From: an uncultured Helicobacteraceae bacterium
GTDB lineage: Bacteria; Campylobacterota; Campylobacteria; Campylobacterales; Sulfurimonadaceae
Direction: 5' to 3'
Assembly (NCBI GenBank): GCA_947311765.1
Contig: CAMZLS010000081.1
Location: forward strand, 1 to 23,762
DNA: 23,762 nt
Shown here: positions 631-23,762 of the stretch, in pieces
Layout: the number at the start of each line of letters is the position of its first letter
Position numbering within the stretch: the first letter of the stretch is position 1
Made by a program: the position numbers and the translations under genes
The notes under the pieces: generated by a model
Told to the model about the DNA's origin: nothing
Database searches by the model: none
What the model saw: the letters and a program-made list of their open reading frames with translations, nothing else

Positions 631-2268
631 ATGCTTAAAATTCATGCTACTCAATTTGTTCTGCCAAAAGCTTCTGGTGTCAAGGGTGATGATGCCTGTA
701 AATATGAAATTATTGATAACGAACTCCTTATCGCAGTTCTTTGTGATGGAGTTGGAAGTGCCGCACGTGGTGGAGCAGCAGCGCGTCAAAGTGTAAAATT
801 TTTTACAGATCAGTTCAAAATTCGTCCTAAAAATTGGAGCATAGAGCAGACACTTATTACCTTCACAAAGCATATTAACCGTCTTCTTTTTAAAGAATCT
901 ATGACCCAATATGAACAGATAGAACTTCTAACGACACTTTGTGTTGCAGTTGTAGAAGGTGACAAGCTCTATACGCTCAATCTCGGCGATTCTCATATCT
1001 ATCTACAAAACAATAATGAACTCACACTCTTAAGCGTTGATCATGTTATGGATAAAGAAAATATGAGCCATGTTCTTACACAAGCATGTGGCTTAAGCGA
1101 AAATATTGATCCTGAAGTCAAAGTTACGGGTATTAAAAAGGGTGATCGACTTATACTTTGTAGTGATGGTGTTTACAATATAACAGACGACTCTTATCTT
1201 AACGAACAGATTTCAAAAGGTCTCAGCGCAAAACTTATTATTAAGTCTATTACAAAAGATTATAAAGACAATGAGCGTGATGATGCTTCTATGCAGATTT
1301 TTACTATTGAAGAATTAAGTCAAATATGTACACTCAAAAACCTCAATCTTCCTATTCCTGAAGAACTGAAAAAAGGTGATATCATAGATGGCTATGAACT
1401 TGTAGAACCGATGATGCAACATCGCCGTATCTGGAAAGTTCGCAAAAAAGAGACTATTCTTGTGATGAAATTTCCAATGAGCGCTGATGACGAACAATCT
1501 TTAGAAGAGTTTGTACGAGAAGCTTGGTATGCAAAGCAGATTCACCACCGCTCTTTTGGAAACGCATGGATACCTGAGAAGCGAACGTCACGCTATTACC
1601 TTATGGAACTTGTAGAGGGAAATAATTTAGAAACTTTTTTAAATAGCAAGCATCTCTCTATTGATAATGCTATCGCTCTAGCTAAATTTTTACATAAAGC
1701 AGAGGCACATCTGCTTCACTTAGGGCTTGTGCATGGTGATATAAAACCTGAAAATATTATTGTTTATAGTGAGGCTGATACGGCTAAAACAGTTTTTAAG
1801 ATGGTTGATTTTGGCTCTATTGTAGAGATTTTTTCTACTGATACACGAGCAGGAACACCAACATATCTGGCGCCAGAGCGTTTTAATGAAGCTAATATTA
1901 ACGAATCCACAGAAATTTTCTCTATCGGTGTCACGCTCTATTGGGCACTGACGAGAAAGTATCCTTACGGTGAAATAGAGCCTTTTCAAACACCATCTTT
2001 TAAACAGCCAAGGCCTCCAAGCCACTACAATAAAAATATTCCAGATTGGTTTGATTCCATCATTCTGCGTGCCATCGCGATAAACCCAAAAGAGCGTTAC
2101 GCCCACTATAGTGAATTTTTCTATGAGTTAAAATCTCCCGAAAATGTAAAGCCATTTTTTCGCAAAAATGCCCCTCTTCTTGAGCGAGACCCTCTTCTTT
2201 TTTATAAAACAGCTTTTTTTACGCTTTTAGGAATTGATGTGATAATTCTTATGTTGTTGATTTCTTAG
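631..2268 (+). CDS. Bifunctional PP2C-type Ser/Thr phosphatase / Hanks-type Ser/Thr protein kinase fusion with a C-terminal transmembrane anchor
   Basis: N-terminal half has PP2C motifs (LCDGVGSAARGG, LGDSHIY, LILCSDGVYN). C-terminal half has kinase motifs (VMK lysine, hinge E in YYLMELVEG, catalytic loop HGDIKPEN, DFG, TPTYLAPE). Last about 20 aa are hydrophobic (FFTLLGIDVIILMLLIS). SD AAGG lies 6 nt upstream of the ATG. Confidence 0.75.
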   Translation: MLKIHATQFVLPKASGVKGDDACKYEIIDNELLIAVLCDGVGSAARGGAAARQSVKFFTDQFKIRPKNWSIEQTLITFTKHINRLLFKESMTQYEQIELLTTLCVAVVEGDKLYTLNLGDSHIYLQNNNELTLLSVDHVMDKENMSHVLTQACGLSENIDPEVKVTGIKKGDRLILCSDGVYNITDDSYLNEQISKGLSAKLIIKSITKDYKDNERDDASMQIFTIEELSQICTLKNLNLPIPEELKKGDIIDGYELVEPMMQHRRIWKVRKKETILVMKFPMSADDEQSLEEFVREAWYAKQIHHRSFGNAWIPEKRTSRYYLMELVEGNNLETFLNSKHLSIDNAIALAKFLHKAEAHLLHLGLVHGDIKPENIIVYSEADTAKTVFKMVDFGSIVEIFSTDTRAGTPTYLAPERFNEANINESTEIFSIGVTLYWALTRKYPYGEIEPFQTPSFKQPRPPSHYNKNIPDWFDSIILRAIAINPKERYAHYSEFFYELKSPENVKPFFRKNAPLLERDPLLFYKTAFFTLLGIDVIILMLLIS

Positions 2269-2720
2269 CCTAAAATTTTATGATTACTATCTATATTTGT
2301 TATTTTAAGGTGATAATTGATACCCTTTTTAAAAGAAGAGCCTATTAAAGAAATTATCAAAAATAAAAATCAAATACCTACTGAAATTGATTACGACACA
2401 CCATCTTTCACAAGATATAAAACTAAATTTCCGAAAGATTGGTTGTCACTAAAAGAAACTTAGGTTAGTTTTGGCATGGGACGAATTAAGACAAGAGGAC
2501 TTGCTTGATGATTGTTTTTTATTATTAAAATTTGACAATGAAGAAGAATTTTTTTTGATGTAAAACCATATGTTTACATTCAATATAAAAATCCAAATAG
2601 CCACAGAGACACTCTCTTGCCAAAACCTACCTCTAAATCTCTTTTTTTATTGCTATAACCACAATATTGTAGTATATAATTATGGTTGCATCAGTAATTT
2701 TTCATTTAAATCCAAATAAA

Positions 2721-2750
2721 CTTGACAGATGAATTTTAAGTATTATACTA
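2721..2750 (+). promoter_or_regulatory. Possible sigma70-like promoter for the desaturase gene (TTGACA ... TATAAT-like)
   Basis: TTGACA at 2721-2726 is followed by AT-rich -10-like hexamers (TATACT/TATAAT) about 17-21 nt downstream. The region is very AT-rich, so many alternatives exist. Confidence 0.25.
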
Positions 2751-2794
2751 TATAATTATCCAATTATTAACAAAGCATTATATAAAGGATAGCG

Positions 2795-3949
2795 ATGGCA
2801 CATACATATACACCGTATGAAGATATAGACAAGGGGAAACTTCAAGAAGATATTGAAGCTATAAAAAAGAATTTAGACCCTGTAAATTGGGAAGATTTTC
2901 AACATTTACTCAAACTTGAACGCTGGGGAAGAGGCGCTACTTTGAGTGGATTTTTTATCATTTTTGTTATTAGCTTTTTAGAAATAAATAGTTTTGTATT
3001 TTGGTCTTTTGCTCTTATTGCAGCTATACTTATTGGTGTTGGAAATGTGGCAAGATGGGCAAATGTTACACACCCTATCTTGCATGGTGCTTACGATAAG
3101 GTGCCAAATATCCCTCACAAATATACAAAAGCGGGTTATGCGCGTGGTTGGAGACGTTTTATCCACTGGTCTGATTGGATTAAGCCTGAGGCTTGGGAAT
3201 ATGAGCACAATATCATGCACCACTACCATTTAGGTGAATTAGATGACCCTGATAATGTGGAAGCAAACCTCCAATGGCTTGTAAAATCTAAAATCCCAAT
3301 GTGGCTACGCTACGCTATCGTTTATGCTTTTGCAACAACATGGAAATATACTTATTACGCCCCAAATACTTTACGAATTTTAGAAAATAAAGAGCGTCGC
3401 AAACGCAAAGAGCCAGAAATATATGATTATGAGATGAGCCCTTTTACAAAAAATGGTTTAGAATTGTGGAAAAATTACTATCTTCCTTATGGAATTATCC
3501 AGTTTGTTATTCTTCCCTTTCTCTTCTTTCCACTTGGAATGGAAGCGGTACTCAACGCTTTTATTATCTTAGTCATGGCAGAAGTTTTTGCCAATCTTCA
3601 CTCCTTTTTAGTGATTGTTCCTAACCACTCTGCTGGAGATATCTATATGTTTAATGAACCACATAAATCTCAAGGTGAATTTTACCTCCGTCAAATTATG
3701 GGAAGCGTAAACTACAACACAGGAACTGACCTTATCGACTTTGCGCATGGCTTTTTAAACTATCAAATAGAGCATCACCTCTTCCCAAATATGCCACACA
3801 GCTTTTATCAAAAAATGCAACCTATCGTAAAAAATATTTGTAAAGAGCACAATCTTGAATACCGCCAAGAGAGCGTTTGGAGACGAATATACTTATCTAT
3901 CGAACTGATGGTTGGAAACTCAAAAGCATTGCGAGTAAATGGTGTCTAG
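2795..3949 (+). CDS. Membrane fatty-acid desaturase family protein (di-iron, His-box)
   Basis: Three His boxes are present (HGAYDK region, HNIMHHYH, QIEHHLFP). Multiple TM segments. The QIEHH third box is typical of front-end or sphingolipid-type desaturases. SD AAAGGAT precedes the ATG. Confidence 0.85.
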   Translation: MAHTYTPYEDIDKGKLQEDIEAIKKNLDPVNWEDFQHLLKLERWGRGATLSGFFIIFVISFLEINSFVFWSFALIAAILIGVGNVARWANVTHPILHGAYDKVPNIPHKYTKAGYARGWRRFIHWSDWIKPEAWEYEHNIMHHYHLGELDDPDNVEANLQWLVKSKIPMWLRYAIVYAFATTWKYTYYAPNTLRILENKERRKRKEPEIYDYEMSPFTKNGLELWKNYYLPYGIIQFVILPFLFFPLGMEAVLNAFIILVMAEVFANLHSFLVIVPNHSAGDIYMFNEPHKSQGEFYLRQIMGSVNYNTGTDLIDFAHGFLNYQIEHHLFPNMPHSFYQKMQPIVKNICKEHNLEYRQESVWRRIYLSIELMVGNSKALRVNGV

Positions 3950-4805
3950 TCAATTAGAGATGTTTCATAGTTTTTGTACGCAAAATCAGCCTAAAACTAT
4001 GCAAGAGGCCTTTGAAAGCTTCGCTGTTTTTGGCGGTATGGGTGTCAAGATAGATACCTCTAAACCTCTTTTGTACTCTATCAAAAAACATATCTTAGAT
4101 GAGTATCATTTTATTCATGGTAATATCATTGAAAAAACGCGAGGTGATAGCGTCTATCACTCTGTTTTAACGGGTCTTGCTATTGGTGATGCTCAAGCAC
4201 ACACTGCTCTTAAGCGTGCCAAACTCTCTGCGGATGATGGCAAACATGTTATCAATCAACTCTGTCATTTTGGACTTTTAGAGCGTGAAGTTTCACGAAA
4301 AATTTCACACTCTTGGGTTGAAGAGAATACTGTTTCTGATAAACTCCATTTTGTTAGCCCTTTTATGCGTTTTTGGTTTGGATTTGTTTCGCCACTTTTT
4401 AAGGGAATAGCTGAGGGAGATTATGAGGAGTTTGAAAAACGCTTTGAAAATCGAAAACAAGAGTTTATGGAACAAGCCTTTATACTATTATCACAAGACT
4501 TTATAAGAGAAAACTTCACAGACGATCCCATTGTCGAGATGGGAAGCTATTGGGATAAAAATATAGAGATAGATATCTTTGCCAAAACTACATCTGGCAA
4601 AATTATCGTAGGTTCTTGCAAATATACAAACTCTAAAATCAAAAAAAATCTTCTTAATAAACTCAAAGAAGATGCCTTACATGTAAAGATGGATGCTGAT
4701 ATCTTTATTTTAATATCAAAACAAGGCTTTTCTAATGAAGTAAAATTACTAAAAAGCGAAAGTCTTAAACTTTTTACTTTAAGAAACTTTAGAACTTCTC
4801 TGTAA
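3939..4805 (+). CDS. DUF234-like (restriction-endonuclease-fold) domain protein; resembles the C-terminal two thirds of archaeal-ATPase/DUF234 proteins but lacks a P-loop
   Basis: C-terminal segment SYWDKNIEIDIFAKTTSGKIIVGSCKY matches the DUF234 core pattern (EIDIva...gEcK). No Walker A motif. Overlaps the desaturase stop by 11 nt. An alternative ATG exists at 3960. Confidence 0.4.
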   Translation: MVSSQLEMFHSFCTQNQPKTMQEAFESFAVFGGMGVKIDTSKPLLYSIKKHILDEYHFIHGNIIEKTRGDSVYHSVLTGLAIGDAQAHTALKRAKLSADDGKHVINQLCHFGLLEREVSRKISHSWVEENTVSDKLHFVSPFMRFWFGFVSPLFKGIAEGDYEEFEKRFENRKQEFMEQAFILLSQDFIRENFTDDPIVEMGSYWDKNIEIDIFAKTTSGKIIVGSCKYTNSKIKKNLLNKLKEDALHVKMDADIFILISKQGFSNEVKLLKSESLKLFTLRNFRTSL

Positions 4806-4995
4806 CTACACTAGCAAATCCCTATGAATTTAAATATTTCAAGAAATAACTTTCTTGGCACTTATCTCTTTATTTGCCACTCTTTTTGGCTACAATACTA
4901 CCTAAAAAGAGTGAGGTACTTTTCTATGCCAAAATGGATACGCATAAGCGTTGGGTTTTTACTGCTTTATAGCGCACTGCTTATTACTGCTTGCG

Positions 4996-5874
4996 ATGGG
5001 ATTCGTCATGCCCTCTAAAAAAGAGTTTACAAGCGCTTCTCGTTACACTCCTGATAAGCAGAAAAAAAAGTTTGTCACTGCTACGCCTGCTTTAAGTGGG
5101 GTTTTGCTTCTGCTTGTCGGGGTGAATTATCTCTCTTTAAGTGTTCAGGCTTTGGCAAAGGCTGAGAGTTTTTACTTTATAAGCACCTTAGCGATTTTTG
5201 CCACCTATGTGCTTGCTTTTGTTCTGCTAAGACGTGGCTTGGCGCTTGAGAAGATTTATAATGACTCGAAATATGCTAAAGCACCAAAATATCCCCTTAA
5301 AACCATAGCTGGCTCACTTCTTGCTCTCTCTACGGTCTATAGCGCTAGCTTTGGTGAATATTCTCTTTTTCCTGCTTTAATGCTTGGATTGAGTGTGCTT
5401 TTGGGTTGGTATCTTTATTATGGTTTTGATCCGCGTGAAGATAAGATTGATGGGTATGAGACCTCAAAATCTGCAGAACGGATTATGAAACTCTTAATTC
5501 AGGCAAGAGAAGATATTGACGCTATCAAAAAAAATGCAACAGAGTTAGAGGGCGGAGACATTCAAGATGCGATAAATACTACCGCCTTAGCCTTTGAAAA
5601 GATGGTTAAACATATCGAAGAGGAGCCTGATGATTATGATAGGGCTCGAAAATATCTTGTCAGCTATCTTGGTGAAGTCAGACAGATGTGTGAAACCTTT
5701 GTCAAACTAGACAAGCGAGGCAAGTCAGAGAGTATGAAAACATCTTTTTTAGAGACCTTACATGTAAGCATTGAAAATCTCGATACACAGTACGAGAAGC
5801 TTTTAGATGAGGATATGGTGAGCTTGGATATCAAGCTTTCGGTGATGAAAAAACGACTACAAAATGAGGAGTAG
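4996..5874 (+). CDS. Membrane protein with N-terminal TM helices and a C-terminal coiled-coil domain; XpaC-like (5-bromo-4-chloroindolyl phosphate hydrolysis protein family), tentative
   Basis: The ORF is open from a TTG at 4951. The first ATG is 4996 and the next is 5008 (MPSKKEF). About 4 hydrophobic helices are followed by a charged helical C-terminus. It sits immediately 5' of a TelA-like gene, as in Bacillus xpaC-yaaN. The family call is from memory of that architecture. Confidence 0.4.
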   Translation: MGFVMPSKKEFTSASRYTPDKQKKKFVTATPALSGVLLLLVGVNYLSLSVQALAKAESFYFISTLAIFATYVLAFVLLRRGLALEKIYNDSKYAKAPKYPLKTIAGSLLALSTVYSASFGEYSLFPALMLGLSVLLGWYLYYGFDPREDKIDGYETSKSAERIMKLLIQAREDIDAIKKNATELEGGDIQDAINTTALAFEKMVKHIEEEPDDYDRARKYLVSYLGEVRQMCETFVKLDKRGKSESMKTSFLETLHVSIENLDTQYEKLLDEDMVSLDIKLSVMKKRLQNEE

Positions 5875-6979
5875 CATAGTGGAAATGAAACAAGAGTTAG
5901 AGAAAATAGAAGTTCAAGACGAGCACTCAGTAGGTGCTTTGGTAGAGAAGATAGATTTAAGTTCAAGCGCGTCTATTATCCATTTTGGAGCAGATGCCCA
6001 AGAGGAGTTGACGACAGTTTCATCGGCTATGCTTGAGGGCGTTAAGGGCAAAGATTTAGGAGAGGCTAGTGGACCGCTATTAAATATGATAGCGACTATC
6101 AAAGGTTTTGATGTTGCCGCGCTTGATCCAAATAAGAAGCTCAGTTTTTTTGACAAACTCTTAGGTCGCGCTAAGCCTCTTGTCATGTTTTTGGAAAAAT
6201 ATGAAGATACAAAAGAGCAGATAGAGGCGATAACAGATGAACTAGAGAAGCAAAAAGGGACACTCTTAAATGATATAGAATCTCTTGATCGCCTCTATGA
6301 TGCAAATCTCAACTATATTCATGAGCTAGAAAATTATATCGTCGCTGGTGGCAAGAAGATAGAGCATCTTGATAGCACAGAGATACCACTTTTAGAGACA
6401 AAAGCCACAGAGAGTGACAATATGCTTGAAGCCCAAGAGCTCAAAGACTTACGCGCTTCTCGTGATGATTTTGAGAGACGGGTACATGACTTGATGCTGA
6501 CTCGCCAAGTGGCACTGCAGGCACTTCCATCTATCCGCCTTGTTCAAGATAATGACAAAACCTTGATAAACAAGATAAACTCAACACTTGTAAATACCGT
6601 GCCACTATGGAAAAATCAACTCGCACAGACGATTACGATTTACAGAAATCAAAAAGCAGGTGGTGTGCTTAAAGAGGCGATGGACTTAACCAACGAGCTT
6701 TTAGAAGCCAATGCGAAAAACCTCAAAGAGGCAAATCGTCAGACGCGAGAACTTGCAGAGCGTGGTGTTTTTGATATAGAGAGTATTAAGCTTGCCAATA
6801 AGCTTCTTATTGAGACCATAGAAGATGGTATTATGATAGCTGATGAGGGCAAAAAAGCTCGTGCGAAAGCTGAAGCAGAACTAGTAGGTTTAGAACAAGA
6901 GCTCAAAGATGCTCTTGTAGCGACTCAGGTGCACAAAGAGCGTTTAGACAAATCAAAAGAGATAGCTAAGGAGGCGTAG
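5864..6979 (+). CDS. TelA-like toxic-anion-resistance family protein
   Basis: A 371-aa all-helical protein with a conserved N-terminal region (IIHFGADAQEEL ... ) and long coiled-coil stretches typical of the TelA/KlaA/YaaN family. It overlaps the upstream gene by 11 nt. Alternative starts lie at GTG 5879 or ATG 5885, after GAGGAG. Confidence 0.6.
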   Translation: MRSSIVEMKQELEKIEVQDEHSVGALVEKIDLSSSASIIHFGADAQEELTTVSSAMLEGVKGKDLGEASGPLLNMIATIKGFDVAALDPNKKLSFFDKLLGRAKPLVMFLEKYEDTKEQIEAITDELEKQKGTLLNDIESLDRLYDANLNYIHELENYIVAGGKKIEHLDSTEIPLLETKATESDNMLEAQELKDLRASRDDFERRVHDLMLTRQVALQALPSIRLVQDNDKTLINKINSTLVNTVPLWKNQLAQTITIYRNQKAGGVLKEAMDLTNELLEANAKNLKEANRQTRELAERGVFDIESIKLANKLLIETIEDGIMIADEGKKARAKAEAELVGLEQELKDALVATQVHKERLDKSKEIAKEA

Positions 6980-6980
6980 C

Positions 6981-8090
6981 ATGGGATTTTTTGATAAAAT
7001 AATGGGTGAGTTTATTGATGTTATTGAGTGGACTGATGGCTCCAATGATACGATGGTGTACCGTTTTGAGCGTTATGGCAATGAGATAAAGCATGGAGCA
7101 AAGCTGACTGTACGTGAGTCACAAGTGGCAGTTTTTGTCAACGAAGGGGAGATAGCAGATATCTTCGAGCCAGGCATCTATGAGCTAGAGACGCAAAATA
7201 TGCCGATAATGACAACACTTAATCACTGGGATCACGCTTTTAACAGCCCTTTTAAAGCGGAGGTCTATTTCTTTAATCTTCGCCGTTTTGTGGATCTTAA
7301 ATGGGGCACAAAAAACCCTCTTATGCTTCGAGATAAAGAGTTTGGACCTGTACGTATCCGCGCCTTTGGTACTTATGGTATCAAGATAGAAGAGCCTGAA
7401 ACTTTCTTAAAAGAGATAGTGGGAACTGATGGGTATTTTACTGTTGATGAGGTGAGCGACCAACTGCGAAATCTTATCGTTTCACGCTTTGCCACTATCG
7501 TAGGACAGGCAAATATCCCTATCTTGGACTTGGCTGCTAACTATGAGCAGATGAGTGAGTTTGTAGAGGAGAAAATCTCTCCAGAATTTAGTGCATATGG
7601 GCTGGAACTCACTAAACTTCTGATAGAAAATATCTCCCTCCCACCAAAAGTCGAAGAGGCACTCGATAAACGCACAGGCATGGGACTAACGGGCAACCTT
7701 GATGATTATCTCAAGTATCAAGCAGCCGAGGCTTTGAGCAGTTCAGGCTCAGGCAGCGGCGCAGCAGGTGATGCTATGGGTATGGGTATGGGTTTTGCAA
7801 TGGCACAGCAGATGGCAAACTCTTTAGGCGCGAACAACGCTTCACAGCCTCAATCGCACGCTACGCCGCCGCCACCACCAATTCCCAAAGCACAAACCTA
7901 CCACTTCGCTATAAACGGAGCATCCAAAGGCCCGATGACGATAGAGCAGATAAAAACAGCGATTCGTAGTGGGGAGATAGAAAAAGAGACTCTTGCGTGG
8001 CGCGAGGGGATGAGTGGCTGGGAGAAAGCGCAAGATGTAGATAATCTTAGCACTCTTTTCGGCTCTATGCCACCACCGATACCGAGCTAG
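6981..8090 (+). CDS. SPFH (band-7)-like domain protein with a C-terminal GYF-like DUF4339 domain; YdjI-like / COG4260 'virion core protein-like'
   Basis: N-terminus MGFFDKIMGEFIDVIEW...RESQVAVFVNEGEI...PGIYELET matches the YdjI-type SPFH family. It has a Gly/Ser/Met-rich linker and a PPPPP stretch. The C-terminal YHFAINGASKGPMTIEQIKTAIRSGEIEKETLAWREGMSGWEKAQDV is a DUF4339-type module. Start is 2 nt after the upstream stop. Confidence 0.65.
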   Translation: MGFFDKIMGEFIDVIEWTDGSNDTMVYRFERYGNEIKHGAKLTVRESQVAVFVNEGEIADIFEPGIYELETQNMPIMTTLNHWDHAFNSPFKAEVYFFNLRRFVDLKWGTKNPLMLRDKEFGPVRIRAFGTYGIKIEEPETFLKEIVGTDGYFTVDEVSDQLRNLIVSRFATIVGQANIPILDLAANYEQMSEFVEEKISPEFSAYGLELTKLLIENISLPPKVEEALDKRTGMGLTGNLDDYLKYQAAEALSSSGSGSGAAGDAMGMGMGFAMAQQMANSLGANNASQPQSHATPPPPPIPKAQTYHFAINGASKGPMTIEQIKTAIRSGEIEKETLAWREGMSGWEKAQDVDNLSTLFGSMPPPIPS

Positions 8091-8092
8091 TT

Positions 8093-9154
8093 ATGAAAAA
8101 AGAGTATATATTTCCTTGCGAGCAGTGTGGCGCGAAACTCAACTACTCCGTAGCTACTGGTGAGCTTACTTGCCCTTACTGTTCGCATGTAAATAAGATA
8201 GAGAGAGCTTTTTCTCAAGTTGTAGAGAAAGATTATGAAAAAGCACTCCAAGAGCTAAAAAATTTCAGTGAACATCCAAGTGAGATAACAAGCTCAAAAT
8301 GCCCGACTTGTGCGGCAACTTTTGAGTTAAGTGAAGATATCCACGCCTCAGAGTGCCCTTTTTGTGGCAGTGCAGTTGTCAATGAAGTCTCACGCTACAG
8401 ACCGATAAAACCCCAAGCACTGCTCCCTTTTGCCATAGATAAGAAAAAAGCAAAAATACTTTTCAAAGAGTGGCTCAAAGGGCGATGGTTTGCTCCAAAT
8501 AAACTCAAAGAGTATAGTGCAGAAGATAGTACCTTAGAGGGAATATTTGTGCCGTACTGGACCTATGATGCAGATACTCATAGCCGTTATAGTGGGCGTA
8601 GGGGTGATGCTTACTATGTGAGTGAGAGCTATACAGAAAATGGTGTAAGCAAAACAAGACGAGTTGAAAAGATACGCTGGAGTAGTGTCAGCGGAGAGTT
8701 AAGCAAAAATTTTGATGATGTTTTAGTGGTTGCTACGAATTCACAAACAAATGCTTCGTATAATTGGGATTTGAAAAACTTAGTCGATTATGATGAAGGA
8801 TTTTTAAGTGGCTATGAGAGTGAGGTCTATTCGGTAGAGCTAGATGATGGACTTAAAAGTGCTAAAACAACTATGACATATCACATACGAGAGGCAGTCA
8901 AACGCCAAATAGGAGGCGATAGACAAGAGATAAGCTCATTAAATAGCGACTTTTTCAATATCACTTTCAAGCATATACTCCTCCCAGTCTATGCCTCTGC
9001 TTTCAAGTTTGATGGAAAAGTATATAGCTATATCATCAATGGAAGAAATGGAGAGATAAGCGGAGAGAGACCATATAGTGTTATTAAGATAACTTTTGCG
9101 GTTCTTAGTGCTTTAGTTATAGGTGGTGCGATTTACTATTTTTCAAATCAATAA
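8093..9154 (+). CDS. Double zinc-ribbon protein with a C-terminal transmembrane anchor (YdjG-like partner of SPFH proteins, tentative)
   Basis: Two CxxC...CxxC ribbons (CEQCGAKL..CPYCSH; CPTCAATF..CPFCGS), a central domain, and the C-terminal helix VIKITFAVLSALVIGGAIYYF. Start is 3 nt after the upstream stop. Confidence 0.5.
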   Translation: MKKEYIFPCEQCGAKLNYSVATGELTCPYCSHVNKIERAFSQVVEKDYEKALQELKNFSEHPSEITSSKCPTCAATFELSEDIHASECPFCGSAVVNEVSRYRPIKPQALLPFAIDKKKAKILFKEWLKGRWFAPNKLKEYSAEDSTLEGIFVPYWTYDADTHSRYSGRRGDAYYVSESYTENGVSKTRRVEKIRWSSVSGELSKNFDDVLVVATNSQTNASYNWDLKNLVDYDEGFLSGYESEVYSVELDDGLKSAKTTMTYHIREAVKRQIGGDRQEISSLNSDFFNITFKHILLPVYASAFKFDGKVYSYIINGRNGEISGERPYSVIKITFAVLSALVIGGAIYYFSNQ

Positions 9155-10582: not shown

Positions 10583-12409
10583 ATGACAAAATTTCTACTC
10601 TACTCTTTTGTGCTCTTTTTTACATTTTTACAAACTCCACTCACCGCTGATGATATCTTTGGTGATTTTATCGCTAAACAGATAGAGATAGAGACACAGT
10701 TTTTAGATAAAAATATGACTTCTAGTAGTGTAGAAAAATTAATGAATGAGCAAAACCGTGATTATCGTACCTTTTTCTTGGCGCTTATCTCAAAAGATAT
10801 GGATGTTTTCAAAGGGACAAAAGATTATAAGCTTGCAGTCTCTACCCTAGAGAGACGCATGAAGATAAATAAACAACGCGGTAACACAAGAGCTTACCTT
10901 CGAGATAAGCTAAAACGAAATACTTATCTTCTTCTACAAAACATCAAAGAGACCTTTGAAGCAGTAAAAACTGCAACAAAGAGCAATACAAAAAAAGAGT
11001 TTGATAAGCGTATAGATTCCATTGTAGCCTCTCGCCATGAAAAAGATGAGACAATAGATATAAAAAAATATAATTTTCTTAAGCAAAGTGGTGATACAAG
11101 TGAAATGACACAAAAGATTCGTGCCAATTTTATCGAAAATCAGGCAGTTTTAAATATTCACAATATGATAAGTTCAGAGCTTGTACGCTTTAAATCACCT
11201 CTGTATGATGCTGTAAAACTCTCCTCTTTTGGCTTGGTATCGCTAGGGTATAAAATTAACACAAGCACATATGGAAGTAAACTCAATACTTATATCTCTT
11301 GGAGTGGTTTAGATAGTGCAAAAATTATTTTTATATTTTTCTTTTTACTTGTCTTGTATTTCGCTAGAAAATTGGTAGTTTTCCTCTCTGGTAAATTTTT
11401 GAAAAACTTTTTTGAAAAATCTGATGATATTAGTTTTATTATAAATAGTATCTCTGGTGTGGTAAGTCTTATTGTTATCGTTGTGAGTATTGATGTTGTG
11501 GTGAAGATATATGCAGGTTTTATGGATGCACCGTGGATACGTTTGAGTTTTAGTATCGCTTATACTGTCTTGATTACCTATCTTGTGCAAAAACTTATCA
11601 GCGCGGTAGCAACACTCAAGATAGAGCAGTTTAGGCGTTCAGAGTATCTGCGTCATGAGGTTATCAACCTTGCTATGCGTGTGCTCAATATTTTTATCTA
11701 TATCATCGGTTTAGTTGTGGTTTTAAATCTTTTTGATGTTGATTTAAGTGCTATCCTTTCTGGTCTTGGAATTGGTGGATTTGCCGTTGCTTTTGCGGCC
11801 AAAGATACTATTGCAAATTTCTTCGGTTCTGTCTCTATTTTGATGGGTGACCTTTTTGAACAAGGTGATTGGATAGCGGTAGATGGCTATGAGGGAACAG
11901 TCGTTGAAATTGGCTTACGCGCAACAACTATACGAACCTTTGACAATGCTATGATTGCCATTCCTAACTTTAAACTTGTGGATAATGGACTGAGAAATTG
12001 GAGCAAACGCCTTCTTGGTCGCCGTATCAAAATGCACATTGGTGTGACTTATGAGTCAGATTTTAAGGATATAAAAAAAGCTATTGATGAGATACGCCAG
12101 ATGTTAATCGAGCATAAAGATATAGCAAACTCAAATCAAGAAACACTCGCCCCAGAACGTTACGCCCGCTTAGTCTCAAGAGAAGACTATAGAGGTGTCA
12201 AGCGTACTATGCTTGTCTATATGGATAAATTTTCAGATTCAAGTATAGATATCTTGATTTACTGCTACTCTCGCTCTGTTGTCTGGAATGAGTGGTTAGC
12301 AACCAAAGAGGATGTAATGTATAAAATCGCAGAGATACTAGAGAAAAACAATCTCTCCTTTGCTTATCCTGCTCTAGCTATTCATCAAGTACAAGAGCAG
12401 TCTTTTTAA
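10583..12409 (+). CDS. mscS: Mechanosensitive ion channel, MscS family (large N-terminal periplasmic domain type)
   Basis: Signal-like N-terminus, multiple TM helices, and the MscS pore/beta-domain signature (GDWIAVDGYEGTVVEIGLRATTIRTFDNAMIAIPNFKLVDNGLRNWSK). Confidence 0.9.
   Translation: MTKFLLYSFVLFFTFLQTPLTADDIFGDFIAKQIEIETQFLDKNMTSSSVEKLMNEQNRDYRTFFLALISKDMDVFKGTKDYKLAVSTLERRMKINKQRGNTRAYLRDKLKRNTYLLLQNIKETFEAVKTATKSNTKKEFDKRIDSIVASRHEKDETIDIKKYNFLKQSGDTSEMTQKIRANFIENQAVLNIHNMISSELVRFKSPLYDAVKLSSFGLVSLGYKINTSTYGSKLNTYISWSGLDSAKIIFIFFFLLVLYFARKLVVFLSGKFLKNFFEKSDDISFIINSISGVVSLIVIVVSIDVVVKIYAGFMDAPWIRLSFSIAYTVLITYLVQKLISAVATLKIEQFRRSEYLRHEVINLAMRVLNIFIYIIGLVVVLNLFDVDLSAILSGLGIGGFAVAFAAKDTIANFFGSVSILMGDLFEQGDWIAVDGYEGTVVEIGLRATTIRTFDNAMIAIPNFKLVDNGLRNWSKRLLGRRIKMHIGVTYESDFKDIKKAIDEIRQMLIEHKDIANSNQETLAPERYARLVSREDYRGVKRTMLVYMDKFSDSSIDILIYCYSRSVVWNEWLATKEDVMYKIAEILEKNNLSFAYPALAIHQVQEQSF
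12329..12396 (+). repeat. Direct repeat copy 1 (inside the 3' end of mscS), 68 bp
   Basis: Identical except for 1 nt to 15537..15604. Confidence 0.85.
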
Positions 12410-12754
12410 ATAAATTTGTGTTGAATGCCTTTTTTATTCGACCATATTACATATACAACACCTAGCACCATACTTATTGCTATAAAAATTTCTAATAATT
12501 ATTTACCCATTTCTTGCCCCTTTTTATAGGGTTAAGCAAAAAGTGTTCTTGATACTGGAATGGGCTAGTAGATTTAATTATAGAATACACAATAAATAAA
12601 CTTAAGGCATTTTTTAAATCTTAAAAATGGCTATAAAGAAAACTAGCTACTTCTGGTTATTGAATTTGCAAGTGGCTCTTTAGTAATTAATAATATTAGT
12701 TATGTTAAAGTATTTATGTGATTTTATATCATAATAAATATATAAGGGGTTAAA

Positions 12755-14729
12755 ATGAAATCTACTAAAATGGGGGGGGGCACTTTTTGTCCTATTGATA
12801 TCATTGCAGTGTAATGCGATAGCTGATAACCAAAATGTACTTAATGCAAAAGCAAAAACTTTTGAGAATGTATCCTTAGATATCGCACAAAGAGATGTTT
12901 TTTTATTAGAGTTAAATGAAAAATATAAAGTTAAGGATGTTGCCAATAAAGTGTCCACAAAATTACTAAAAGTATTGTTGGATAATAAAACAATAAATAT
13001 AGCAGTTGACCTTTTTATTAGTGATGATGTAAATGATTTTACATATACAAAAAATAACAAATATATTAACGCACAAGCAACATATACTTTTAATTTAGAT
13101 ACTAACAAATCGTCATATACTTTAAATGGTGAAAAAAGTATTGATGATTCTATTGCTCAGTATATGGTTGCACAAGAGTTCTTTTTTGCAGAAAAAAAGA
13201 GACTTCGAGAAGAGAAGCGTCAGAAAAATATTAAAAAAATTACTTTAATTTTAAAAAATAATAAGAAAATAAACGCTTTATTAAGTTCTACGTCTGATTA
13301 TGTGAGCATTAATCTTGATAAACATGAACTAGCAAAGCTTCTTAAAGAGGCTGGAGATGCAATTAACGCATATGATATCCATAGTAAATTAACACCATCA
13401 AATACTGCTGCAGAGTGGGATAATAGTCGTAATGGATATTTACAAGGAGTTTCTATAACACAAATGCATGGAGTATGGAATGATTACTTTCCAAATACTA
13501 GAGGTGAAAATATTGCTATTTATTACTCAGATGCACATTGCCCCAATAATGGAAATGATTTGTATTATGGCTATGTTGCAACAACAGGAGCTTGCCAAGA
13601 AGTAGGAAACCTTAACGATGAGGACACAGGTGCAGGGTATCATACACGAATTATAACTGGAATTCTTAGTACAGTTGCTAATGAAGTGAATTTGCTTTGT
13701 AATGATCATGCTAGAGATAGCAGTGATGTAGATAGCCGTTTACCAACTGCTATGGGAAATATAAATATTGAAACATATAGTTTAAATAACTATAATGATA
13801 ATACCTTATCATACAAAAATATTGATGTTGCATTTGATCACCATGCATTTAATAATCGTACAATTCCAGTATTTGTATCAGCTGGTAATAAATTGGATGA
13901 ACTGAATCCAGACAATCACGTTTTATCTCCAGCAAAAGCTTTTAATATTACTACTGTAGGTTCGTACGGGAGAGATGCTGTAGCTGGTACTTTAAGTTGG
14001 TCGAACTTTTCAAGCAATGTTAATCCTGAGACTATAATTGGAAATAGGACTATTCAAAAACCTGAAGTGTCTGGACCAGGAGAACATTTCCATTGTGCTG
14101 ATATTGTAGGTGATGATAGTTGTCATGAACTCTTTAATGAAGATTCTGGAACAAGTTTTGCAACTCCATGGATTGCGGCTATGGCTGCAGATGCTATGTC
14201 TCGTGGGTCATACTGGAGAAGTAGTGCAGCTATGGTCAAAGCTTTAGTTATTTCTGGTGCTTCAGACCCAATTGCAGGTACAAGAGATGAAGTAGGTGAA
14301 GGTGGGGTTGATCTTTTTACAATGACTTGGCAAAATACTAATAGTGGTTATTGGTATGATGCAAATCCTTCAGAGCCATTTAGTGGTACTAATCCAAGCC
14401 AGTTTGATTATAATAACAACTGCTTTACTAATTGGCAAACTCAATTATATGATGGAAGAGATCAACGGATAGTTATTTCTTGGCTTAATGATATTACTAA
14501 TGCCACAACATTGAGTAATATACCAAATAGCTATAGCTTAGAACTGATTAACTCAAATGGTTCTGTTGTTGAAAGCACTTCAGAAGATACACAAGGGTAC
14601 CAAATTATAAATACTAATCAGCCCGCAGGACTTTATACTGTTAGGGTGTGTAAGCTTAGACAGAATTCCTCTCAACGTTTTGATATGGGATTTTCAGTAT
14701 CACAAAGGACAACTCAATGGTGGGATTAA
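12755..14729 (+). CDS. Subtilisin-like (S8 family) serine peptidase with a signal peptide. It is frameshifted at a G9 tract in this sequence (phase OFF); it is in frame with G8 or G11. The in-frame portion begins at TTG 12795
   Basis: SD AAGGGG (12744-12749) is 5 nt upstream of ATG 12755. With 9 G the reading MKSTKMGGGTFCPIDIIAV stops. Removing one G gives MKSTKMGGALFVLLISLQCNA|IADNQ..., a signal peptide continuous with the 644-aa ORF. S8 motifs: FVSAGNKLD (oxyanion Asn) and DSGTSFATPWIAAMAA (catalytic Ser). Confidence 0.7.
12772..12780 (+). repeat. Homopolymeric G9 tract (candidate slipped-strand phase-variation switch) in the 5' coding region of the S8 protease
   Basis: Seen directly. Nine consecutive G in a genome segment of about 33% GC. 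Confidence 0.9.
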
Positions 14730-15508
14730 TAAATTTTACAAGTAAGACACTTTTAAGTATTTTACTTTTTATAATTATTTTTTTAGTTTCTGGATGCGGT
14801 GAAGATACTAAGTCTTCTTGTTCAAATAACTCTAATCTTAGTCGTAATGATGCGGGATACTATGGAGAAGATGTATATTTTGGTGGTCATAAGATTTTGG
14901 GAATATGGAGAACTGGTTTGAACTACCAAGAAAATAATTTTTTTAATATAGATGGGACTATGATTTATGAACGTGGAAGAATATATCGAAAGGTTTATCC
15001 ACAATATGGTGTAAGCGAGGATGGTAATGTGCTAAATATTATTGATGAAAATAATAATACTGAACATTATATATATATAAAATCAAATACTAACTGCTTT
15101 AGTGTTCTTAAAAAATCAACACAAAAAGAAATACAGTTTTGTAAATACGAGACGTTAAGTTTTATTGATAACTCATTGAGAAAAAATACTGAACTTGGTT
15201 TTTTTGGTTACGCAACACTATTTGGGTATGAACGTATAGTAGGGTCATGGAAATATATCCCAATTAATGGTGCATATACAGAAATTTTTGATTTTAAAGA
15301 AGATGGTAGTGGCTTTAAAAGGGTAGTGACAATATATGGTGGAAAGGAAGAGCATATTCCATTTCATTATGGAGTTAGTCAAGATGGTAAAGAGCTAGAT
15401 CTTCAGATGGCAGATGATTCTATAGAAATATATCAACTTGTTAGCACATTTGAGGGTTGTTATAAAATGATACATCAAGATGTAGAATATAAATTATGCA
15501 AACCCTGA
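14717..15508 (+). CDS. Lipoprotein of unknown function
   Basis: Signal peptide plus lipobox (LLFIIIFLVSGC). The 13-nt overlap with the protease stop suggests translational coupling. No recognisable domain. Confidence 0.6.
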   Translation: MVGLINFTSKTLLSILLFIIIFLVSGCGEDTKSSCSNNSNLSRNDAGYYGEDVYFGGHKILGIWRTGLNYQENNFFNIDGTMIYERGRIYRKVYPQYGVSEDGNVLNIIDENNNTEHYIYIKSNTNCFSVLKKSTQKEIQFCKYETLSFIDNSLRKNTELGFFGYATLFGYERIVGSWKYIPINGAYTEIFDFKEDGSGFKRVVTIYGGKEEHIPFHYGVSQDGKELDLQMADDSIEIYQLVSTFEGCYKMIHQDVEYKLCKP

Positions 15509-15536
15509 TTTTTTCAGAGTTTATCTTAAAGCTATT

Positions 15537-15604
15537 GCAGAGATACTAGAGAAAAACAATCTCTCCTTCGCTTATCCTGCTCTAGCTATTCATCAAGTAC
15601 AAGA
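15537..15604 (+). repeat. Direct repeat copy 2 (displaced mscS 3' end remnant), 68 bp
   Basis: Matches 12329..12396 with one mismatch (T/C). In-frame remnant ...AIHQVQE then a stop. Confidence 0.85.
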
Positions 15605-15665: not shown

Positions 15666-16613
15666 ATGTATAAAAAAATAGAAGCAATAAAATCAGAAAT
15701 TTCAAAAGTAGTAGTTGGTCAAGATAAGATGATTGACGGATTATTAATCGGTCTTTTATGTGAAGGGCATATTCTTATAGAGGGTATTCCAGGTCTTGCT
15801 AAGACAACTACAGTTAAAGCACTTTCCGAGAGTTTGGGTCTTGGGTTTAAGCGTGTTCAGTTTACCCCTGACTTGTTGCCATCAGATATTTTAGGAGCAG
15901 AGATTTATGATCCTAAGAGTAATGAGTTTAAAATCAAACACGGTCCAATTTTTACAAACCTTCTCCTTGCAGATGAGATTAACCGTGCACCAGCAAAGGT
16001 ACAATCAGCACTGCTTGAAGTGATGCAAGAGCGTCAAGTGACTATTGGTGAAGAGAGTTTTAAACTTACTCCTCCATTTTTTGTTATGGCTACGCAAAAT
16101 CCAATAGAACAAGAGGGTGTCTATCAACTTCCAGAAGCGCAACTAGACCGTTTTATGATGAAGCTTAATATTGGCTATAACACGCAAGAAGAAGAGTTAG
16201 AGATAGCAAGACGTATCGCCAACAAACAGAGTGAAACAATAAAAGCTGTCGTAACACTCGAAGAGATTGAAGCACTCAAACAAGCAGTCTCTGAAGTGCA
16301 TGTAGATGAAGAGGTCGAAAAATACATTATTGAACTTGTTCAAGCTACGCGTAATCCTGAAAACTATGGTTTAAAAGAGATGAAAGAGCATATTCAGTTT
16401 GGTGCTTCTCCTCGTGTAAGTATTGATATGTTCAAGGCCGTTAAAGCGATGGCATATCTTCGTGGCAAAGATTTTGTAACACCTGTTGATATCGCTTATA
16501 TTGCCAAAGATATGATGCGCCACCGTATCGTTTTGAGCTATGAAGCAGAAGCAGAAGGTATCACAACTGACCAGATTATAGAAAATGTACTCAAAGCGGT
16601 GCCTATCCCCTAA
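15666..16613 (+). CDS. moxR: MoxR-family AAA+ ATPase
   Basis: Walker A GIPGLAKTT, Walker B LLADEINRA, sensor and arginine-finger regions. Canonical MoxR length (315 aa). Confidence 0.95.
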   Translation: MYKKIEAIKSEISKVVVGQDKMIDGLLIGLLCEGHILIEGIPGLAKTTTVKALSESLGLGFKRVQFTPDLLPSDILGAEIYDPKSNEFKIKHGPIFTNLLLADEINRAPAKVQSALLEVMQERQVTIGEESFKLTPPFFVMATQNPIEQEGVYQLPEAQLDRFMMKLNIGYNTQEEELEIARRIANKQSETIKAVVTLEEIEALKQAVSEVHVDEEVEKYIIELVQATRNPENYGLKEMKEHIQFGASPRVSIDMFKAVKAMAYLRGKDFVTPVDIAYIAKDMMRHRIVLSYEAEAEGITTDQIIENVLKAVPIP

Positions 16614-23445: not shown

Positions 23446-23687
23446 GTCTCCTTACTTTCATCATTTTAATTCCTTTTTTTATAACTGAAATTTCTTTTAG
23501 TGTAATTTACCCCAATGGTGTCACCAATTGGACACATTGGGATGTATTGAGTTCAAGCTGCGTGATTTGTTGATTGAGGGACGAACCCTCTCACCATATT
23601 GTTACTGTCGGAGGGAAATTAATTCACTGAAGGAAGCATACTTCATCGGTAGTTTGTTTACGTTCATCACACTTGAGATTCCCCCTT

Positions 23688-23699
23688 CCCCCCCCCCCC
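23688..23699 (+). repeat. Homopolymeric C12 tract (preceded by C5TT), non-coding
   Basis: Seen directly. Twelve consecutive C, about 60 nt from the window end. No ORF spans it. Confidence 0.9.
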
Positions 23700-23762
23700 A
23701 CCACTAATTTTGGGATTTCTTATAATTTAATAAATCCTCCACATCTAATAATGAAGAGGCTC

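Follow-up and report, generated by a model that had tools for sequence, protein, structure and literature searches.

A nine-guanine tract as a candidate translational switch of a predicted exported subtilase on an accessory islet of a Sulfurimonadaceae bacterium

The subject of this analysis is a run of nine guanines (G9, positions 12772-12780) at the 5' end of a gene for an S8-family subtilase, carried by a 23,762-nt contig (CAMZLS010000081.1, assembly GCA_947311765.1) of an uncultured member of the Campylobacterota, the whole of which is referred to below as the window. As suggested by the arrangement of the reading frames and by comparison with relatives of the gene, and with a probability that we put at about 0.7, the tract is a hypermutable repeat serving as a translational ON/OFF switch, that is, a contingency locus, for a Sec-exported protease situated on an accessory islet. 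It separates the protease frame from the only ATG linked to a Shine-Dalgarno (SD) sequence, and its length exceeds the cut-off of at least seven nucleotides applied to hypermutable poly-G/C tracts (PMC6321876). The parts of the locus between 12326 and 15604 lie on the forward strand.

Reading frames around the G9 tract

The Shine-Dalgarno-like sequence AAGGGG (12744-12749), as read from the sequence, precedes an ATG at 12755-12757 with a spacer of 5 nt (TTAAA), and the coding order that follows is ATG AAA TCT ACT AAA ATG and then the G run, the nine guanines of which include the G of the internal ATG at 12770. With the assembled length of nine, which corresponds to the OFF state, translation from ATG 12755 is confined to a leader open reading frame (ORF) at 12755-12814 that consists of 19 codons (MKSTKMGGGTFCPIDIIAV) and is closed by TAA at 12812-12814; with ten guanines translation ends after 14 codons. 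Rebuilding of the tract in silico with 8 or 11 guanines resulted in proteins of 657 or 658 aa with MKSTKMGG(G)ALFVLLISLQCNAIADNQ at the N-terminus, whereas lengths of 6, 7, 9, 10 and 12 yielded only peptides of 13-20 aa. The repeat sits inside the reading frame, and over lengths of 6 to 12 changes in the number of units alternate between the full-length and the truncated product. Hence, both statements that an earlier, sequence-only reading had made about this region, namely that the frame of the SD-linked ATG 12755 stops after 19 codons at G9 and that 8 or 11 guanines join a signal peptide to the S8 protease, are borne out, the former by reading the sequence and the latter by reconstruction in silico.

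The long ORF is in the +1 frame relative to ATG 12755. This frame is closed upstream by a TGA at 12756, and no ATG, GTG or TTG occurs in it between this TGA and the TTG at 12795. ATG 12755 is the true start of the protease precursor in the ON state (G8 or G11). The ON-state precursor reads MKSTKMGG(G)ALFVLLISLQCNA-IADNQ and is joined to the intact 644-codon frame of the S8 subtilase; within the signal peptide, the tract follows the charged n-region (MKSTKM) and precedes the hydrophobic core (ALFVLLISL). An interrupted, 'locked' form of the tract would read GGAGGTGGA.

The protease and its signal peptide

The body of the subtilase ORF occupies positions 12795-14729 and comprises 644 codons counted from the first TTG; the publicly annotated product (P0001, 641 aa) starts at TTG 12804 and begins with MQCNA. 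A match to Pfam family Peptidase_S8 (PF00082) was obtained with 62.9 bits against a cut-off of 21.8 (E-value 4e-17), covering profile positions 110-274 only. In P0001 numbering the catalytic residues are Asp243 (YYSDA; codon 13530-13532), His280 (YHTRIITG; 13641-13643), the oxyanion residue Asn362 (SAGN; 13887-13889) and Ser451 (GTSFATP; 14154-14156), of which His, Asn and Ser are invariant in the protease family and Asp is kept in 9 of 10 members. The protein also has a long N-terminal part of some 230 aa, and its last 130 aa or so form a family-specific region that is conserved among homologues. The best sequence matches in the PDB were Bacillus subtilases, aligned over about 100 residues. 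An AlphaFold model based on a 10-sequence alignment reached a mean predicted local distance difference test score (pLDDT) of 48.7, with values below 50 in the catalytic region, and is too poor for use of the fold. Apart from the tract, no lesion was found in the protease gene, which has 644 open codons, a GC content of 37% and all four Asp, His, Asn and Ser residues.

Three parts of a Sec signal peptide are present in the ON form: the charged n-region, a hydrophobic core of 9 residues with a mean Kyte-Doolittle value of 3.08 and a small-x-small C-N-A site. Cleavage by signal peptidase I is predicted at CNA/IAD, after GCG 12816-12818, by the -3/-1 rule rather than by a dedicated predictor. The two products initiated at TTG 12795 and TTG 12804 reach Kyte-Doolittle means of only 1.24 and 0.64 and contain no hydrophobic core. 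All homologues that are complete at the N-terminus possess a signal peptide there, which indicates that export is the ancestral state.

Occurrence of the tract by chance or by error

The earlier judgement that a G9 run is improbable by chance agrees with the result of sequence shuffling, since G9 and C9 runs were absent from all 100 dinucleotide-preserving shuffles of the window. The only other G/C run of at least 7 nt in the window is C12 at 23688-23699. A background of 428 kb of Campylobacterota loci contained 10 G/C runs of at least 7 nt, none of at least 9 nt, and one dinucleotide repeat of at least six units. By arithmetic from this background, about 0.02 G/C runs would be expected in the pooled signal-peptide regions of the protease family, against 4 or 5 observed.

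The window is about 93% coding, and 24 A/T runs of 7-8 nt lie inside unbroken long ORFs, which makes a general homopolymer error unlikely. A generic assembly artefact was considered as the origin of the tract and rejected: the other homopolymers are in frame, and since altering the length by one step brings back a complete signal peptide fused to 644 codons, there can be no doubt that the tract exists.

Simple repeats in the protease family

The protease family is very small: 10 matches were found among 5.8 billion clustered proteins, and a profile search of 1.84 billion representatives returned 67 matches at or below 1e-30, about 20 of which are further full-length distant members. A simple repeat is found within the signal-peptide coding region of about 75 nt in 5 of 11 distinct members (G9, G10/G8, G8, C7 and (TC)6), including the window, where G9 marks the border between the n-region and the hydrophobic core and the gene is OFF as assembled. 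Four members (loci L003, L095, L007 and L098) have no such repeat, and a sixth member (L001/L002) is split by an A9 run deeper in the gene. The contigs bearing homologues have GC contents of 34-46%, and on those with a G/C tract (L006, L009-L011 and L094) the 5' tract of the protease gene is the sole G/C run of at least 7 nt.

The pair of loci L094 and L099 represents one gene (P0007, 50% identity to the window) recovered in different sequencing runs. In L094 a G10 run (45-54) is placed between MFLKYM and SLILVTLLAC, following the start context AAAAGGGAAAAC-ATG TTT TTA AAA TAT ATG, and the gene is OFF and would be ON at 6, 9 or 12 guanines; in L099 a G8 run (45-52) has the same position and the gene is likewise OFF. 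The two contigs of about 3.15 kb (3155 nt), which originate from different samples (ERR15087767 and ERR15087772), are 99.9% identical and differ only by one substitution and a 2-nt gap in the tract. A G9 allele of this gene would be ON and would encode MFLKYMGGGSLILVTLLAC..., with a possible lipobox.

Further members carry the repeat at other positions or of another kind. In L009, L010 and L011 (P0009, 37% identity) a G8 run closes the signal-peptide coding region (...SVSWGG-IFEK), the gene being ON; the length is invariant in the three sequences, one ENA metagenome contig and two metagenome-assembled genomes (MAGs) from NCBI. In L092 (36%) a (TC)6 repeat (1364-1375) lies inside the hydrophobic core, the gene being ON and a change by one unit leaving 17-24 aa. 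In L006 (P0005, 53%) a C7 run in the region 8001-8070 stands just before the hydrophobic core and is read in frame from a distal ATG lacking an SD, while the SD-linked ATG (AAAGGAAAAAAC-ATG) is in frame only at C5 or C8, giving a classic signal peptide. The C7 run of L006 lies between two starts in different frames and yields a long N-terminus from the distal ATG, so that two of the three length classes lead to a full-length protein and the N-termini differ.

The closest homologue (P0002, 71% identity) is interrupted by an A9 run about 250 nt into the gene, at 2002-2010 in L001 and 404-412 in L002, and is OFF. The run splits the gene into parts of 87 and 564 aa, and A8 or A11 restores 643 or 644 aa. 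Of the five contigs on record, two were fetched (L001 from ENA, L002 from a Logan assembly), and both have the same A9. Judging from the sequence, this A9 could be a case of phase variation, of transcriptional slippage or of decay. A DDE transposase lies directly upstream of the protease gene in L001.

Among distant members such as P0024, P0025, P0014, P0020, P0021, P0026 and P0028, some resemble the G8-bearing P0009 by an SWGG or SGG within the signal peptide, and several have no signal peptide. Such starts may be hints of further tracts or of OFF alleles.

In the OFF homologues the repeat is the only lesion, and a one-step change in length restores the full ORF. Nucleotide similarity between members stops upstream of about codon 50, and the repeats differ from one another in kind and in precise location. 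To all appearance they were thus acquired independently, and such repeated acquisition argues for selection for switchability. As far as these sequences allow a judgement, recurrent 5' repeats are what selection for switchability predicts, and are predicted neither by random decay nor by sequencing error.

Proposed mode of switching

By analogy with the G8-G11 tracts of Campylobacter jejuni, for which such changes have been measured, slipped-strand mispairing at replication would add or remove guanines of the G9 tract at high frequency, so a population would always hold a minority in the opposite state. C. jejuni, a relative within the phylum, has no MutS1/MutL/MutH mismatch repair. Epsilonproteobacteria have been reported to lack MutL and MutH and to possess MutS2 only (PMC2147049). 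Tracts of C. jejuni have a modal length of nine, and reporters with G8 and G9 switch at high rates (PMC3401435). Poly-G/C runs of at least 7 nt are the accepted cut-off for phase variability in Campylobacter, and all tracts of at least 8 nt vary in strain NCTC 11168 (PMC6321876).

In the sequenced majority state, which would be OFF, no exported protease would be made, because the products of TTG 12795 and TTG 12804 have no signal peptide. The ON form would be exported by the Sec pathway and cleaved after CNA. The OFF state would probably also lower the expression of the overlapping downstream lipoprotein gene through lost translational coupling and polarity, an effect that is likely to be partial because this gene keeps an SD of its own (AAAGGA). 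The benefit might consist in bet-hedging over a costly or exposed extracellular protease, with public-good cost and recognition by phages or predators as conceivable examples.

Alternative explanations and opposing evidence

Other explanations of the locus have to be weighed against a switch driven by tract length. The gene could be a plain pseudogene, in which a one-off +1 insertion struck a mutation-prone run of a dispensable, horizontally acquired and decaying gene and no switch ever evolved. The location on a small accessory islet, the transposases and the Tn7-like module adjoining homologues and the OFF state of other family members (L094, L099, L001 and L002) are consistent with decay. 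However, the 644 codons (37% GC) are free of any further lesion and retain the full set of catalytic residues, the sole lesion of every OFF homologue is a repeat that can be corrected by a one-step length change, and the recurrence of G, C and TC repeats in non-homologous 5' ends is not predicted by random decay, which together render this explanation improbable. We also consider it unlikely that the tract was miscounted during sequencing or assembly and that the true length is G8, or a G8-majority mixture, with the gene intact and ON. In favour of a miscount, the window consists of one draft contig, long G runs give short- and long-read platforms more difficulty than any other homopolymer, and the end of the contig 63 nt after C12 suggests that assemblers struggled with such tracts; the in-frame A/T runs, however, speak against general homopolymer noise, and OFF lengths were recorded independently in the homologue data sets (the identical A9 in two contigs; G10 and G8). 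Moreover, a miscount would bear on the present state of the locus but leave its nature untouched, as the tract remains hypermutable anyway; with G8 as the true majority length, one would be looking at the same device in its ON state.

Transcriptional slippage on long homopolymers is established, and the G9 allele might be expressed constitutively by recoding, either via RNA polymerase slippage producing G8 or G11 transcripts or via a ribosomal +1 shift on GGG-G. The S8 frame is +1 to the frame of the ATG, such that it could be restored by the loss of one base from the RNA or by a +1 shift, and the A9 homologue in L001 carries a long homopolymer. Against this stands the fact that documented efficient slippage concerns A/T runs of about 9 nt or more, G runs being poorer substrates. 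No stimulatory element, rare codon or stop lies beside the run, no Rfam element was found in the window, and the productive shift would be +1 or -2 and not the -1 favoured by a G GGG GGG heptamer. The corrections required differ by member (-1 nt, +1 nt or one dinucleotide unit), which fits slippage at the DNA level better. No conserved slippery motif with a stimulatory element, as in a programmed recoding site, was seen among the homologues, in which tract type, position and correction vary. Recoding is thus very improbable. Still less credence can be given to an internal start at TTG 12795 or 12804 with a product that works without a signal peptide, which would make ATG 12755 and G9 irrelevant. 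Gene callers did choose TTG 12804 for P0001, but neither TTG is preceded by an SD-like sequence, the products have no hydrophobic N-terminal core, unlike all complete homologues, which carry signal peptides, the strong SD-ATG located 40 nt upstream would encode nothing but a 19-aa peptide, and an unsecreted subtilase precursor has no obvious role.

Several observations weigh against the switch proposed here. No other copy of this allele was found: the repaired protein matched only the product of the window itself at 100% identity. Exact look-ups of P0001 and of the partner lipoprotein and MscS proteins led to no other contig, a protein scan of genome contigs and a search of a plasmid collection gave no match, and scans with the family alignment returned only two distant loci from metagenomes and none from the viral collection. 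The window is one 23.8-kb contig of a draft or MAG assembly, so a miscount by one base in G9 is possible. L094 and L099 are automatic short-read assemblies, so that their G10 and G8 lengths might be artefacts, and with both lengths the gene is OFF. Of the four G/C-tract alleles, three are OFF from the SD-linked ATG, which also fits the decay of a dispensable mobile gene. G/C runs of at least 7 nt are scarce in the sampled Campylobacterota loci (10 in 428 kb), with none of at least 9 nt. Finally, Miller et al. (2007) reported that Sulfurimonas denitrificans, along with Arcobacter and Wolinella, has no hypervariable G:C tracts (PMC2147049). The sequence-only reading had proposed phase variation by tract length; this part gains support from the repeats in 5 of 11 family members and from the G10/G8 pair of homologues, whereas the allele itself is a single database copy.

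The islet and its lipoprotein gene

The gene downstream of the protease (14717-15508) encodes a lipoprotein of 263 aa with the signal peptide ...IIIFLVSGC and an internally duplicated domain. At the start of this gene, ATGGTGGGATTAA, there is a 13-nt overlap with the protease stop, and AAAGGA lies 7 nt upstream. This overlap, together with the ...LVSGC lipobox, agrees with the earlier mention of an accompanying lipoprotein gene. The overlap junction is also conserved in L001 and L003, where the partner is 38-43% identical over the aligned parts, and weak similarity was detected in L009. No Pfam family matched the partner lipoprotein above threshold, similarity to DUF5640 remaining below it, and a word-indexed search with this protein found no homologue besides itself.

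The protease and lipoprotein genes form a 3.2-kb islet between two copies of a 71-nt direct repeat. The left copy (12326-12396), which sets the left boundary, belongs to the 3' end of an mscS-family ORF (10583-12409), and the right copy (15534-15604), 97% identical to the left one, marks the right boundary just past the lipoprotein gene. By its sequence, the right copy looks like a relic of the original mscS 3' end (...CAAGAATAA). Because the repeat brackets the protease-lipoprotein pair, the islet represents a real insertion. The proposal that the pair is carried on an inserted islet is thus upheld, and related genomes do not have the pair upstream of the MoxR operon.

No integrase or transposase was found inside the 3.2-kb islet, and searches of the window revealed neither Rfam elements nor a tRNA around it. 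Promoter and terminator scans around the islet performed no better than on shuffled sequence. The homologous loci share no islet ends, nucleotide similarity being limited to coding regions. In homologues with enough downstream sequence, the next gene encodes a lipoprotein of one of two unrelated types, and some homologues adjoin a DDE transposase or a Tn7-like tnsABC-tniQ module. To judge by its genomic setting, the protease-lipoprotein unit behaves as mobile cargo.

Host and other features of the window

The MoxR ATPase encoded at 15666-16613 is 83% identical to the MoxR of a 'Helicobacteraceae bacterium' MAG and 73-80% identical to that of most Sulfurimonas and Sulfurimonadaceae MAGs (two others, 83% and 71%), compared with 58-72% for the remaining Campylobacterota matches, e.g., Sulfurovum. 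On account of this similarity the host is placed in the Sulfurimonadaceae (Campylobacterota), which is in accordance with the Campylobacter/Helicobacter setting assumed at the outset. The MoxR-DUF58-BatA/B operon is syntenic in these relatives, in none of which the MscS, protease and lipoprotein genes are found upstream of it. A 7.6-kb contig (L024) of a host-related 'Helicobacteraceae' MAG contains three G/C runs of 7-8 nt (at 2697, 3442 and 4294), in or near BatA/B-like paralogues upstream of MoxR. Some relatives of the host may carry more such tracts than others.

The second long tract of the window, C12 (23688-23699; context 23680-23762), is intergenic, and 63 nt separate it from the end of the contig. 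Downstream of the tract follow a TATAAT box (23721-23726), at a distance of 21 nt, and, at about 52 nt, an ATG AAG AGG CTC (23751) that runs off the contig. From this position, C12 may be a promoter-located phase-variable tract acting on the transcription of a gene beyond the contig end, and it may also be the reason why the assembly stops there.

A short ORF at 4926-5018 encodes a lipoprotein-type signal peptide (MPKWIRISVGFLLLYSALLITAC...) and overlaps, in another frame, the start of the ORF at 4951-5874, which encodes a 307-aa protein of Pfam family Halogen_Hydrol (PF10112); no long repeat is present at the overlap. The arrangement may represent a frameshift, two separate genes or a chance overlap. 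Positions 631-2268 encode a fusion of a PP2C phosphatase and a Ser/Thr kinase, followed by six ORFs up to 9154, mostly without family assignment, among them those for a GltJ-like protein (6981-8090) and a zinc-ribbon protein (8093-9154). The GC content is raised to 0.46 at 7000-8500. The region 631-9154 looks like a signalling or envelope gene cluster.

Comparison with known phase-variable genes

As far as sequence comparison reaches, the mechanism is that of a standard translational contingency locus of the Campylobacter/Helicobacter type and not a new one. The poly-G/C genes of C. jejuni and Helicobacter (cj1139 with G8, cj0031 with G9) resemble the locus in phylum and in repeat type and length, and in the genes of the C. 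jejuni phasome, as here, the tract lies in the 5' part of the ORF, where a change of 1 nt toggles between the full-length and the truncated product. In contrast to those of host-associated pathogens, the present tract belongs to an environmental member of the Sulfurimonadaceae and would act on a secreted protease, and the locus is known from its sequence. The phase-variable genes of Campylobacter mostly act in surface-glycan synthesis, flagellar modification and restriction-modification, and no protease turned up when the text of the Campylobacter phasome paper was searched.

A functional precedent is NalP (AspA) of Neisseria meningitidis, a lipidated protein of the S8 subtilisin family. This secreted autotransporter serine protease has a poly-C tract in its coding sequence and was detected by immunoblot as ON only at 7, 10 and 13 cytosines (PMC3723659). 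NalP shows that phase variation of an extracellular protease by a homopolymer in the coding sequence is real and used, and the earlier description of the present locus as an unusual contingency locus is overstated in this respect, while the host lineage is unexpected. NalP belongs to the type Va autotransporters and has a beta-barrel at its C-terminus, whereas Pfam assigned only Peptidase_S8 to the protein analysed here, which is accompanied by a separate lipoprotein gene; as no beta-barrel domain was found by Pfam, the protein, which would resemble NalP in its switching, is not a NalP-type autotransporter. The two proteases have no detectable close sequence relationship, and their hosts differ in phylum and ecology.

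Homopolymer frameshifts rescued by slippage, such as those in poly-A runs of endosymbionts, are similar in that the frame is disrupted in an otherwise intact gene, a parallel relevant mainly to the A9 of L001/L002. Those cases involve long A/T runs and heterogeneity of the RNA, whereas the tracts of the protease family are mostly G/C or TC, their lengths differ between samples at the DNA level and the corrections are member-specific. A full-text literature search for Sulfurimonas in combination with homopolymeric tracts or phase variation returned no relevant paper.

Implications

Homopolymer-based phase variation is textbook knowledge for Campylobacter, Helicobacter, Neisseria and Haemophilus, where it is usually explained by immune evasion and host adaptation. 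What appears to be new in the present case is the host lineage, the mobile protease-lipoprotein cassette as the target and the family-wide, apparently convergent placing of different repeats. Among the repeat-bearing loci of the family, the window is the only one with an identified host (Sulfurimonadaceae). On the strength of these sequences it is quite possible, if somewhat short of probable, that a rare family of mobile cassettes in environmental, apparently free-living bacteria has repeatedly and independently gained G, C, TC and perhaps A repeats, and that bet-hedging of this kind extends beyond host-associated pathogens.

Gene callers mis-annotate such loci, reporting truncated proteins or TTG-started ones without signal peptide, and the OFF state is often what metagenome consensus sequences record. 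If the switch is real, it would provide a concrete, testable case of stochastic ON/OFF control outside a host setting, with phage or predator recognition, public-good cost and surface attachment as candidate fluctuating pressures on the extracellular protease. If the repeats were indeed gained independently as described, contingency bet-hedging would also govern the secretion of an extracellular enzyme in a group whose one genome examined in the literature lacked hypervariable tracts. The C12 tract in a putative promoter would then point to a wider 'phasome' in this organism.

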